Below are positions 98-3,012 of a stretch of DNA of 15,489 nt, piece after piece (the stretch's first letter is position 1; every line of letters begins with the position of its first letter). Source of the DNA: a virus; UHGV virus genome UHGV-0097030, one strand, 5' to 3'. The notes beneath the pieces were generated by a model that made no database searches, had not been told where the DNA came from, and was given only the letters and a program-made list of their open reading frames with translations. Both the position numbers and the translations under genes were made by a program.

Positions 98-289
98 CTA
101 CGAATTATGTTGTTTTTTAGCTTCAGCTTTCCATTCATCAAAGGCAGTGTCTTTGTTCATGGTGCTGATATTGATCTTACGGTCAATATCATATACACGC
201 CACTCACCGTTAGGCCTCTCTTCGCATCTAACTAAGTATGAATTGCCATTAATATCTATGCGTCTGTCTATTTGCATGAACATTTTCAA
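98..289 (-). CDS. Hypothetical small phage protein
   Basis: 63-aa ORF in the track. The codon at 289 is TTG; the first in-frame ATG is at 283. Same strand as the early-left operon. No recognisable motif. Confidence 0.35.
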   Translation of the reverse strand: MKMFMQIDRRIDINGNSYLVRCEERPNGEWRVYDIDRKINISTMNKDTAFDEWKAEAKKQHNS

Positions 290-400
290 TTTTCGAATCC
301 TCTTTAATATGCATTTTTTGCTATTTCAGTAGTTTACTATTGATGAGGCGTTATTATACACACTTCATTAATGCAAGCATCTTTATGCTATGCTACTAAT

Positions 401-682
401 TTAGCAATTGATATTCACCTTTATCGCGTATACCTTTACCGGTTTATCGCCGAAGTGGGGATGTGTGATTGTCTTGATTTCATATCCGTCATACGGGACA
501 TCAATTCTGCGACTGAAGTCGTCGCGCTTCGGATATCCCTTCGTGATAATCAGGCGGTCATACTCCCGGAACATAATTCGCTTATTCCAGTAGTTATTAC
601 ACAAGCGATACTCTTCCGTTTTCTCCCCGCGAATCATGGCATCGAAGTATTCACCTTTGACGGCAAGTTGCAGGTTAGCCAC
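401..682 (-). CDS. Hypothetical protein, possibly ASCH/PUA-like fold
   Basis: 93-aa ORF with GTG start at 682 preceded by AGGAGG at 6 nt spacing. Start overlaps the upstream gene by 8 nt. An IRGEKTEEYR segment resembles the ASCH G-x-K motif; the domain call is tentative. Confidence 0.5.
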   Translation of the reverse strand: MANLQLAVKGEYFDAMIRGEKTEEYRLCNNYWNKRIMFREYDRLIITKGYPKRDDFSRRIDVPYDGYEIKTITHPHFGDKPVKVYAIKVNINC

Positions 683-959
683 GACCTTCCTCCTTTAGCT
701 TGTGAATTTGTATCGTCATGCCGCTTTGAGTGGTGACTACAATGACAGAACCAGGCTGAAGGCTGTTAAGATTGAATGCTTCGTAAAACGAATCCAAGGC
801 CAGCGCTTTTTTATTCTTTCGGTTCCACCAACGCCATCCCTTGCTACAGGCTACACTGACAATCCACTGCCCACTCCTGTAAGCCATATAAAACCAGATT
901 AGCAAAACCTGAAGGAATGCTATCCAGTCAATAATCGTATATTTCGCGAAGTCGTCCAT
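675..959 (-). CDS. Hypothetical protein with one predicted hydrophobic segment
   Basis: 94-aa ORF. ATG at 959 overlaps the upstream stop (TAATG). Hydrophobic stretch IIDWIAFLQVLLIWFYMAY. Confidence 0.5.
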   Translation of the reverse strand: MDDFAKYTIIDWIAFLQVLLIWFYMAYRSGQWIVSVACSKGWRWWNRKNKKALALDSFYEAFNLNSLQPGSVIVVTTQSGMTIQIHKLKEEGRG

Positions 960-1255
960 TACTTCACCTCCTGCGGAGTAGCCTTTACAAGCACTGGTGT
1001 AAATCCATCTTCATTAAGGTTATGAATATAGACTTCCGTTCTCCTGCGCTCTTCAGCGTTTAATATTGTTTCTGGATCATAAACCAATACTTTCATTCGA
1101 CTATTCCATGAAGAAATCGCTTCAGATCTAGTTCGTTTTTCTGGTCCTTGGGCACCACATTTGCATGACACATAGCGCATTTTCCCTCTGATACTGAATG
1201 AGTATCCGATGTTAAGCACAGTGGAACCACAGAATGGGCAGCGATATAGATTCAT
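959..1255 (-). CDS. Lar-family restriction alleviation protein (zinc ribbon)
   Basis: 98 aa. N-terminal MNLYRCPFCG plus a second CKCG pair is typical of Lar-family zinc-ribbon proteins. ATGA overlap with the upstream gene. Confidence 0.6.
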   Translation of the reverse strand: MNLYRCPFCGSTVLNIGYSFSIRGKMRYVSCKCGAQGPEKRTRSEAISSWNSRMKVLVYDPETILNAEERRRTEVYIHNLNEDGFTPVLVKATPQEVK

Positions 1256-1953
1256 AAATCATCCACCTTAGGCGCAGCTGAGACAGCAACATTCCAGAAC
1301 TCAGAAAACATATTGTATGCACCAGATAGATTGGAAGTGGCATACCCTCCAAGCTCACTTCTAATCTGAACGGCTCTCATCATTTCCGGTGTTAACTCCT
1401 TCGGCACCATAACCCAACCATCCGGAGTTACCGGAGAGTTGCCATCCAGCGCGTTCAACTTGTAATCCTGGCTTACAGGTTCGGCTTCTAGTTCTGCTAT
1501 GCGCTTCTCTGATGCTTCAAGTAACGCCTGCTTATCGCGTAGCGCTTCTTCCAGTTCAGCAACATGGCACTCACTATCAATAAGGTTGTTCTCTGCGGCT
1601 TCCAACTCAACACGCAGCTTCCCTACCGTTAGCGCAATATCCTCGTTCTCCTGGTCGCGGCGTTTGATGTATTGCTGGTTTCTTTCCCGTTCATCCAGCA
1701 GTGCCAGCACAGTAGCCGGATTGGCTGCAGCGATGAATTCAGCATTGGCCTGCTGTTCCATTTGGAAATCTTCATCGAAACCGCTTTCAGGATGCGCTCC
1801 TTCAATTATGCAAATGGGAAGATATCCAACAACTTCACGATGAATTAGCGCATCACCAGCATCAAATCTCCCCTCTCCATATTCGAGCGACCACACACCA
1901 CACGTTGCTTTCTCTGCCTTTTCACGCAGTGCCTGATAGTCAATATTGCTCAT
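1252..1953 (-). CDS. Ead/Ea22-like family protein
   Basis: 233 aa. N-terminus MSNIDYQALREKAEKA and motif ANAEFIAAANPATVLALLDERERN are characteristic of the Ead/Ea22-like family. Central coiled-coil-like region (EAAENNLID...LEEALRDKQALLEASEKRIAELEAE). Confidence 0.75.
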   Translation of the reverse strand: MSNIDYQALREKAEKATCGVWSLEYGEGRFDAGDALIHREVVGYLPICIIEGAHPESGFDEDFQMEQQANAEFIAAANPATVLALLDERERNQQYIKRRDQENEDIALTVGKLRVELEAAENNLIDSECHVAELEEALRDKQALLEASEKRIAELEAEPVSQDYKLNALDGNSPVTPDGWVMVPKELTPEMMRAVQIRSELGGYATSNLSGAYNMFSEFWNVAVSAAPKVDDL

Positions 1954-1954
1954 G

Positions 1955-2254
1955 TCACATCACCCTGAATCCGTTGCATTTACGTAAAAAATCGCAGATA
2001 TAGCCCTTCATTTTTTCGTGCCAATCCCGATCATTCCCATTGCACCAACCATCAGGTGGAGTCCAGTTTTCTATCAGAGCAGCCATTTTCTTTGCTTTTG
2101 CCGGAGTAGCTGTTGCGGTATCGCAGTAATGACGAGTGTCAACCAACGCATCCATACCATCGATATCAAGTACGCAAAACCATGTGTGATTCGGCATTCC
2201 AACAGATGGTATTTGTTGCCCACGTCGACGTTTATCAATAAGACATACACTCAC
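1955..2254 (-). CDS. Hypothetical protein
   Basis: Track ORF 1955..2275 begins with GTG at 2275. An in-frame GTG at 2254 has AGGAGG 6 nt upstream and overlaps the stop of the upstream small ORF (GTGA), so 2254 is preferred. Cys/His-rich, no recognised domain. Confidence 0.45.
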
Positions 2255-2418
2255 TGCTTGCCTCCTTTGCGCCACATCGCATTCAGATATTTGTTTTGAT
2301 TCACTGAAGGAAAAGAATTTCTCTTAAGCAATTCCTCTCTCGATGGCATTGGCTTTACGCGTTGGCGAATAATCATTTCTGCCGGAAGAATGCCGGGATT
2401 GTATGCAAGTCCTCTCAT
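2251..2418 (-). CDS. Hypothetical small protein (55 aa), not in ORF track
   Basis: ATG at 2418 overlaps the stop of the upstream gene (ATGA) and is preceded by GGAGAG at about 6 nt. Stop TGA at 2251-2253 overlaps the GTG start of the downstream gene. Hand translation: [55 protein letters not shown]. Confidence 0.4.
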
Positions 2419-2705
2419 GATTTACTCTCCACGAACTGGTCAACAGCCATGCTAAGTGACACACCTAAATTCTCGATATGTTGCTGAATATCCTGTAGCG
2501 TCTGCGCCTGAGATAACAGGATTTCACGGTTGCATAATTCTTTAACCAGATGCTCAAACTTGCTGTAATAACCGATACGGCTTAGTGTTTCTTTCCCTGC
2601 ATTCTCGCCTTCTTTGATAATTCCTCTTTCACTAAGAATCAGATCGTGTTTGGTTCCGGTAATAACGTATTTTCCGAGGTCGATGTTTATCTTCATTGTT
2701 TTCAT
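2415..2705 (-). CDS. Hypothetical protein
   Basis: Track ORF 2415..2738. The ATG at 2705 ([11 protein letters not shown]...) has GAGGAA about 6 nt upstream and lies just past the upstream stop, so it is the preferred start. Confidence 0.5.
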
Positions 2706-2715
2706 TGTTAATTCC

Positions 2716-3012
2716 TCAGTCATTACTGATAGCGCCATAGCGTGAGCGGTAATTACGCAGGCGCGGGTCGATATATTCAGGGAAGTGGGTATATGTGGCT
2801 TTGCGGAATGGTCGGATTGATGTCTGGTAAATTAGCTCGCGTTCTTCTTTCTCTGCAAGCCATATACAGTGGCGAAATTCCTTTTCCTTTTTCGTTTCCT
2901 GCGGTAGCGACATTATCCGATCGTAGTTTTTTCTGAATTTATCCAGCACCTCCGATACGGAATTGCCGGAACAGCGGCGCGGGTCATCCGCACCATACAG
3001 AGGCGCTGGCAT
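2716..3012 (-). CDS. Hypothetical early protein, tentatively Abc2-like anti-RecBCD
   Basis: 98-aa ORF downstream of erf/ssb in the same operon. The position corresponds to the P22 abc genes. The sequence match to Abc2 is from uncertain memory only. Confidence 0.45.
   Translation of the reverse strand: MPAPLYGADDPRRCSGNSVSEVLDKFRKNYDRIMSLPQETKKEKEFRHCIWLAEKEERELIYQTSIRPFRKATYTHFPEYIDPRLRNYRSRYGAISND

Follow-up and report, generated by a model that had tools for sequence, protein, structure and literature searches.

Known gene families in the probable early-left accessory segment of a P22/Sf6-like lambdoid prophage

When analyzing the virus genome UHGV-0097030, a stretch of 15,489 nucleotides (nt) referred to below as the window, we asked what kind of locus is formed by the crowded minus-strand genes at positions 98 to 3012, whether these genes are real, whether they belong to one operon read from a PL promoter, and whether they act against host defenses. 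The window, deposited in ENA as the metagenome contig NODE_952_length_15489, is a segment of a lambdoid prophage, with the xis-proximal end, erf, N, cI, cro, cII, O, P, the nin genes, and Q. Nine open reading frames (ORFs), numbered here from O9 at 3012 to O1 at 98, follow one another on the minus strand of 98-3012. This stretch lies between the recombination module (erf, an SSB-like gene, and abc2) and the prophage's excisionase end. Very probably it makes up the accessory part of an early-left operon, in a lambdoid prophage of the P22/Sf6 type. The block is an already known, ordinary module in which each gene belongs to a catalogued family and most functions are still to be assigned; ten exact proteins (O1 to O9 and the SSB-like protein) are already present in public collections, several of them on hundreds of contigs or more. 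The main value of the analysis is a clean annotation, in which the "orphans" of a preliminary description of this DNA become named families, two start codons are fixed, and Abc2 moves from a tentative to a firm call.

Gene string, junctions, and collinear cassettes

Minus-strand ORFs of at least 55 amino acids (aa) fill 96% of 98-3012, compared with a mean of 21% and a maximum of 53% in 500 dinucleotide-preserving shuffles, and all nine ORFs match curated or clustered protein families. We calculated the ratio of nonsynonymous to synonymous polymorphism (pN/pS) by the pooled Nei-Gojobori method over about 160 related loci from IMG/VR and annotated genomes. In their own frames the values were 0.13 for O2, 0.19 for O3, 0.27 for O4, 0.39 for O6, 0.19 for O7, 0.17 for O8, and 0.41 for O9, while both shifted frames of these seven ORFs gave about 0.9 or higher (1.2 to 1.4 for O9 and, with 60 DNA variants, 1.8 to 3.0 for O7). 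Purifying selection is restricted to the own frame in these seven. For O1 and O5 the ratio is uninformative, with too few full-length variants. The nine ORFs are real protein-coding genes.

From O8 to O2, seven genes form a chain in which stop and start codons overlap or stand 1 nt apart. Read from the sequence, the junctions are ATGA at 2418-2415 (O8/O7), GTGA at 2254-2251 (O7/O6), TGA-c-ATG with a 1-nt spacer at 1954 (O6/O5), ATGA at 1255-1252 (O5/O4), TAATG at 961-957 (O4/O3), and an 8-nt overlap at 682-675 (O3/O2). abc2 (O9) lies close by, and the chain breaks before O1. Overlaps thus account for five of the eight junctions, the rest being the 1-nt spacer, a 10-nt spacer, and a 111-nt gap ahead of O1. 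The description of nine tightly packed ORFs on one strand stands, with one exception: O1, lying 111 nt beyond O2, is not part of a translationally coupled string.

Two of the starts had to be moved. O8 begins at ATG 2705, preceded by a GAGG Shine-Dalgarno sequence with an anti-Shine-Dalgarno duplex of -6.1 kcal/mol, compared with +0.6 for 2738, and abc2 and O8 are therefore 10 nt apart with no overlap. O6 begins at GTG 2254 (AGGAGG, -11.6 kcal/mol, compared with +0.3 for 2275), and its alignment with phrog_1239 starts at residue 8 of the longer ORF. Both corrected starts agree with PHROG alignments, with the Sf6 annotation, and with gene calls made independently for this contig. Every one of the nine genes has its own Shine-Dalgarno sequence. 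At the overlapping junctions ribosomes would terminate and reinitiate, by which the small proteins would be coexpressed.

Comparison across related loci showed an invariant gene order in which each gene is present or absent independently of the others, with BLAST breakpoints falling at the gene borders (683/684, 962/963, about 1910, 2270, 2419, 2702, and 3015). Each gene is a separately exchangeable cassette in a collinear menu. One IMG/VR contig carries the complete set of nine genes in this order, about 96% identical. None of the phage and Escherichia coli records covers 80% of 1-4200, and hundreds share pieces of it at 95 to 99%.

The closest annotated counterpart is found in Sf6 genes 20 to 25 (also the hka genes of HK620 and CUS-3), which have the same order and strand (Lar-like, Ead/Ea22-like, gp22, gp23, gp24, and abc2) and the same junction types (overlaps of 4 nt, a spacer of 1 nt, and, after abc2, one of 10 nt). 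Protein identity to Sf6 is 95 to 100% for O4, O6, O7, O8, and O9 but just 70% for the Ead/Ea22 protein. Sf6 lacks O1, O2 (ASCH-like), and O3 (DUF4752), and it differs in its SSB/recombinase set and in the genes near N. The P22 early-left region (erf-abc1-abc2-orf56-eaE...eaC-xis) holds the same position in the PL operon as the block described here, with identities of 91% for abc2, 77% for orf56 (DUF2737), and 74% for Erf, and P22 eaD shares the Ead/Ea22-type coiled-coil piece. P22, however, has abc1 where this phage has the SSB-like gene, eaE, eaF, eaA, eaG, and eaC where this phage has DUF5405, DUF7739, the Lar-like gene, DUF4752, the ASCH-like gene, and O1, and gene 24 in place of the lambda-type N and nutL found here. 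The lambda exo-xis region (orf60a, orf63, orf61, ea22, ea8.5, and lambdap35) occupies the same place in a PL/N-dependent operon and shares an Ea22 homologue (44% over 128 aa) and a hairpin junction module ahead of the gene that comes before xis. Within the lambda locus used for comparison, the other eight ORFs have no protein match, the Ea22 C-terminal domain is not shared, and Gam, Exo, and Bet stand in lambda against Abc2 and Erf in this phage.

Protein families and counterdefense

The firmest functional assignment is that of O9 (2716-3012, minus strand), which the preliminary description had called possibly Abc2-like. The identity is right and that grading was too weak. O9 matches PF11043 over aa 1 to 98 of its 98 residues (E value of 2.3e-60, 201 bits, with a cutoff of 25), is 91% identical to P22 Abc2 over 98 aa, and aligns end to end with chain A of PDB entry 8b1t (E value of 4.7e-55), which is the structure of P22 Abc2 with RecBCD (PMC9836394). 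The gene is adjacent to the Erf module, with erf at 3419-4024, the SSB-like gene at 3036-3419, and abc2 at 2716-3012. By these matches O9 is a firm Abc2 orthologue, and by orthology to the solved P22 protein it would bind RecBCD and redirect it to Erf-dependent recombination.

O4 (98 aa, 959-1255, minus strand) was correctly placed in the Lar family: it scores above both curated cutoffs, with 58.7 bits for TIGR03655 (cutoff of 39.6) and 35.8 bits for PF14354 (cutoff of 28.6). The zinc ribbon comprises aa 1 to 53, with cysteines C6, C9, C31, and C33 in a CxxC ... CxC arrangement that is kept in 22 of 22 distinct homologues spanning the region, down to 66% identity. A conserved 45-aa tail follows, as in Sf6 gp20, and the full-length architecture of ribbon and tail is likewise retained down to 66% identity, with pN/pS values of 0.21 for the ribbon and 0.35 for the tail. 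In size O4 departs from a Lar protein of a single domain of about 55 to 65 aa, since it has 98 aa and its tail is under purifying selection. It shares the Lar models and the four-cysteine zinc ribbon with Lar of the Rac prophage of E. coli K-12, which acts in alleviation of EcoKI restriction, and carries the conserved 45-aa C-terminal tail in addition. A PDB sequence search with O4 gave nothing meaningful. On the basis of family membership, O4 probably alleviates type I restriction. In relatives of this gene, the RefSeq annotation made by the Prokaryotic Genome Annotation Pipeline (PGAP) shows a truncated Lar pseudogene and a separate 47-aa hypothetical protein, where an ORF of 98 to 100 aa is intact (loci L001 at 1853-2155, L003 at 2161-2463, and L008 at 4161-4463).

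The Ead/Ea22-like call for O5 (233 aa, 1252-1953, minus strand) also holds, with a PF13935 match of 122.5 bits (cutoff of 27; E value of 2.6e-35) over aa 2 to 156, the N-terminal and coiled-coil part. O5 is 62% identical to P22 EaD across 58 aa and 44% identical to lambda Ea22 over aa 51 to 175, where the alignment ends. Its C-terminal domain (about aa 160 to 233) had no sequence match in the PDB at E values up to 1 and is unlike the C-terminal domain of lambda Ea22, which has been solved by nuclear magnetic resonance (PMC10834534). The protein is proposed to form coiled-coil oligomers and to have had its C-terminal domain swapped, and the gene is, as judged from these alignments, mosaic within itself. 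The exact O5 sequence is the sole member of its 90%-identity cluster (7 contigs). Parts of it recur elsewhere, such as the N-terminal leader and the coiled-coil piece at 1594-1711, which has 88 to 94% DNA identity with lambda ea22 and P22 eaD; the C-terminal domain recurs with 100% identity within a different protein of E. coli MB06171.

The remaining ORFs had been regarded as orphans, which they are not; they belong to DUF5405, DUF2737, DUF7739, DUF4752, and phrog_16329, and their exact sequences occur on many public contigs. O8 (96 aa, 2415-2705, minus strand) is a DUF5405/phrog_154 protein related to Sf6 gp24 and P2 Orf83 (E values of 2e-5 for PF17399 and 6e-33 for phrog_154; 95% identity to Sf6 gp24). 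Its AlphaFold2 model, with a predicted local distance difference test (pLDDT) score of 91, has four strands and two helices and no convincing structural neighbor in the PDB, and sequence and profile searches against the PDB gave nothing meaningful. Since a confident model has no such neighbor, the PHROG label "replication initiation protein" is unsupported by any of our results. O7 (55 aa, 2251-2418, minus strand) had been described as an orphan absent from the track; it is DUF2737, the family of P22 orf56, Sf6 gp23, and HK97 gp38, and is annotated routinely (PF10930, E value of 8.8e-32; 77% identity to P22 orf56 and 100% to Sf6 gp23). O6 (99 aa, 1955-2254, minus strand) is a DUF7739 protein corresponding to Sf6 gp22 (PF24881, E value of 1.5e-20), and O3 (94 aa, 675-959, minus strand) is a DUF4752 protein (PF15944, E value of 1.7e-35). 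A membrane helix predicted at aa 8 to 26 near the N terminus of O3, with a Kyte-Doolittle 19-residue maximum of 1.78, points to a membrane-anchored protein. O3 is missing as a clean cassette from loci L001, L003, and L008. A literature search with the four DUF names returned a single incidental mention.

O2 (93 aa, 401-682, minus strand; phrog_625, E value of 1e-49) had been called possibly ASCH-like, and this is supported by the fold and not by the Pfam match. The latter (PF04266) reaches 14.4 bits over 23 aligned residues, below the cutoff of 21.2; there was no NCBIfam match, and sequence and profile searches against the PDB gave nothing meaningful. With the AlphaFold2 model (pLDDT of 86.7), 13 of the 14 best Foldseek matches in the PDB were ASCH/PUA-like proteins, among them 3iuw (probability of 1.0), PH0355, PF0470, YqfB, and ZmASCH, with template modeling scores of 0.47 to 0.58 and weak E values (best, 5e-3). 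At the fold level, these model comparisons support an ASCH/PUA-like nucleic acid-binding fold in O2. The GenBank record of CUS-3 carries a plus-strand ORF overlapping the ASCH-like gene (371-736 of the window; 267-617, plus strand, of locus L007). Because the frame-specific selection favors the minus-strand gene, this call is probably spurious.

Abc2 and, by family, Lar are assigned from sequence to counterdefense or host takeover, while DUF5405, DUF2737, DUF7739, and O1 are conserved proteins whose function is unassigned. For the DUF genes, antidefense roles are a reasonable prior and not a finding. One may go further and suppose that at least one of DUF5405, DUF2737, DUF7739, DUF4752, O1, and the ASCH-like protein is a dedicated defense inhibitor and that the cassette menu is the product of an arms race. 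This reading is possible, although on balance we consider it unlikely. In its favor, the cassettes vary in presence within a fixed order beside two known counterdefense genes, regions adjacent to abc2 have been deliberately screened for counterdefense genes, the abc1 gene of P22 triggered an abortive infection locus in that work (bioRxiv 10.1101/2023.04.06.535777), and the confidently modeled DUF5405 protein lacks a neighbor in the PDB. However, neither the family searches nor the fold searches with O2 and O8 linked any DUF gene or other cassette by homology or fold to a known antidefense protein, the lambda exo-xis genes that have been studied act on the lysis-lysogeny decision and not on defense (PMC7093339 and PMC3824215; for the region and Ea22, see also PMC10834534), and a variable accessory content is equally compatible with many other roles. 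PADLOC gave no match, which speaks for the lack of a known defense system protein, its library being one that excludes antidefense proteins.

A related and slightly less probable proposal is that the menu downstream of abc2 is a counterdefense island in which at least one catalogued but unstudied protein would act as a new decoy or inhibitor, directed at a host immune system or at a DNA repair hub. The best candidates may then be DUF5405, directly after abc2 and with a confident fold that has no PDB neighbor, and the DUF4752 protein with its predicted membrane anchor. Prophages of Escherichia and Salmonella very commonly carry DUF5405, DUF2737, DUF7739, DUF4752, and phrog_16329, and because the function of these families is still unassigned, they are reasonable entries for antidefense or lysis-lysogeny screens. 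The copy of the block in this window adds nothing new to the case for screening them.

The PL operon and the start codon of N

The upstream elements expected of an early-left operon, namely, a PL-like promoter, nutL, an N ORF, and intervening terminator-like hairpins, were all located on the minus strand. The promoter (TTGACT, 17 nt, TACTAT; 6486-6514) aligns with the -35 and -10 elements and the transcript start of lambda PL, and a cI-like repressor gene at 6640-7341 adjoins it. By alignment with lambda nutL, the nutL site (6416-6446) consists of boxA GGCTCTTA at 6446-6439 and boxB GCCCTGAAGAAGGGC at 6430-6416, of which boxB is the same as in lambda and boxA differs by one base. The ORF for a lambda-type N antiterminator (5815-6147) is intact and matches phrog_271 over its full length (E value of 1.7e-25). 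Between N and erf there are three terminator-like hairpins, at 5143-5160, 4524-4541, and 4484-4503, the second of which matches Sf6 tL2A, with window positions 4518-4636 aligning at 98% with the annotated Sf6 stretch. In the closest relatives (L013 and L159), same-strand genes continue downstream with a 114-aa ORF and a TorI-like Xis.

By analogy with established lambda and P22 biology, this architecture fits a PL/N-antiterminated operon. On loss of the repressor, transcription would begin at PL (6514-6486), and RNA polymerase carrying N from nutL would read through the hairpins at 5160-5143, 4541-4524, and 4503-4484, and one long mRNA would span erf, abc2, and the gene string, on towards xis.

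Several points weigh against this picture of a functioning accessory segment. The operon reading of 98-3012 was obtained from the sequence alone, and the function of six of the nine proteins is read from family labels or from fold resemblance. The Lar assignment of O4 comes from sequence models, and Lar of the Rac prophage is a protein of about 60 aa that is not known to carry the 45-aa tail of O4. O1 may be expressed apart from the rest, as it has the 111-nt spacer ahead of it and a terminator-like hairpin behind it. Finally, because N begins with ATT in this lineage, N-dependent expression is not to be taken for granted; very little N, or none, may be made, and the string could be poorly expressed.

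At the position of this ATT (6147-6145), ATG is the codon in lambda, in E. coli MB15, and in three IMG/VR loci. A 64-kb ENA contig assembled independently, identical over 7953 nt, has the ATT as well, which is therefore not a one-off read error. Exact matches to the ATT allele numbered 0 in 185,579 species-representative genomes, and when the 854 complete E. coli genomes that share this 5' end of N were ranked, the top place did not go to a full-length exact match. The next in-frame start, TTG 6075, would lose the arginine-rich boxB-binding peptide. On the contig of the window and on the 64-kb contig, gene callers report no N gene.

These data could be taken to mean that the prophage is silent and N defective, so that ATT yields little N, PL transcripts stop at the tL terminators, and the string, through a recent defect, only looks functional; a weak or absent supply of N would therefore mean weak or absent read-through from PL. 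The occurrence of ATT in two assemblies, the lack of an exact match in the species-representative genomes and at the top of the E. coli ranking, the loss of the boxB-binding peptide from a start at TTG 6075, and the three hairpins between N and erf are all in line with such a defect. However, the nine ORFs and the N ORF are all intact, the ATT variant persists in at least two samples, and the pN/pS values, being family-level measurements, are silent on this lineage. Moreover, AUU initiates translation at a low level in E. coli, for example, in infC, and N acts in small amounts. We regard a silent prophage as improbable and prefer an operon that would be read from PL with the help of N. The ATT start, which lies outside the gene string, is the sole unusual point of the locus and bears on whether the prophage can express its early operons.

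Two further observations concern the flanks of this region. The N leader (6193-6379, from nutL to the N start) is unlike that of lambda; because it is 99.6% identical to the leader of HK633, HK544, HK446, mEp213, and Sf101, it is a common alternative with no novelty. In the sister contig L159 (ENA ERZ27272277, k119_36919), positions 8879-11383 hold the TorI-like excisionase gene of the prophage end, followed immediately by genes for a P4-type integrase (Arm-DNA-bind_3) and an AlpA-like protein, which suggests a second mobile element integrated beside the prophage.

O1, its flanking elements, and neighboring features

O1 (63 aa, 98-289, minus strand) matches phrog_16329 (E value of 8.5e-49), and its family is narrow, with 9 representatives found among 1.84 billion proteins in an exhaustive HMMER search. 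Homologues of the same length at 48% and 35% identity retain R21, P26, G28, W30, D34, S42, F50, and W53, together with the N terminus MxxFMQIDR, which supports the TTG start at 289. Across close relatives, 7 of the 192 nt of O1 vary and indels are lacking, compared with 17 variable columns, including indels, in the 111-nt spacer that separates it from O2. Two complete E. coli genomes annotated by PGAP have no call for O1, which falls within a 383-nt "intergenic" gap; unannotated copies lie at 1587-1775 of locus L003 and at about 3587-3775 of locus L008.

The position of O1 raises the question of whether it is a moron of the resting prophage, transcribed separately from a promoter in 290-400 to a terminator at 56-37 and so outside the PL operon. 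The AT-rich spacer (290-400) contains a perfect TATAAT at 358-353, a strong hairpin with a U-run follows immediately downstream of O1, and O1, besides belonging to a narrow family, always accompanies O2. The hexamer, however, stands alone: near it there is no acceptable -35 element or extended -10, it reads AATAAT in three relatives, and it was not called in a promoter scan. We rejected a promoter there. The terminator-like hairpin (37-56, minus strand; an 8-bp stem with a UACG loop and a U-run) separates O1 from the following gene, whose start is at 16, and the 54-nt segment holding it (22-75) has a folding energy of -16.2 kcal/mol (z score of -4.15). Because lambda, Sf6, and HK106 have the module but not O1, the hairpin belongs to the junction of the next gene and not to O1. 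A moron is thus a doubtful reading, marginally more so than an N-defective prophage, and we prefer to see O1 as the last gene of the PL accessory segment. The 57-nt module at 15-71 has the appearance of a conserved terminator or junction where the xis-proximal genes begin. It comprises the UACG-loop hairpin, the U-run, and the GGAG and ATG of the next gene, and is 91 to 98% identical to sequences in lambda (upstream of lambdap35), Sf6, CUS-3, and HK106; in lambda, Sf6, and HK106 its relative position is the same.

That the 55-aa O7 and the 63-aa O1 are untranslated chance frames, as their shortness and the PGAP omission of O1 in two complete E. coli genomes might suggest, is hardly credible given the PF10930 match of O7 (E value of 9e-32) and its low pN/pS against that of the shifted frames, the indel-free conservation of O1 with its residues and N terminus kept at 35 to 48% identity, and the Shine-Dalgarno sequences at both.

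Next to the accessory segment, the Erf single-strand annealing recombinase gene (3419-4024, minus strand) is a 201-aa gene call with a PF04404 match (E value of 4e-44) and 74% identity to P22 Erf. The SSB-like protein (3036-3419, minus strand) belongs to the HK97 gp40 family (phrog_44, E value of 1.9e-28; a weak TIGR00621 match; pN/pS of 0.17). It has 127 aa and an acidic tail ending in DDSIPF, occupies the slot between erf and abc2 given to abc1 in P22, and is labeled "hypothetical protein" in RefSeq. Rfam searches found no RNA family in the whole window at gathering thresholds or in 1-3100 at E values up to 1, direct and inverted repeats in 1-3100 were limited to short pairs at chance level, and the window has zero Chi sites. 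On the plus strand, an HNH endonuclease gene lies at 12123-12725, within the nin region and immediately after ninB.

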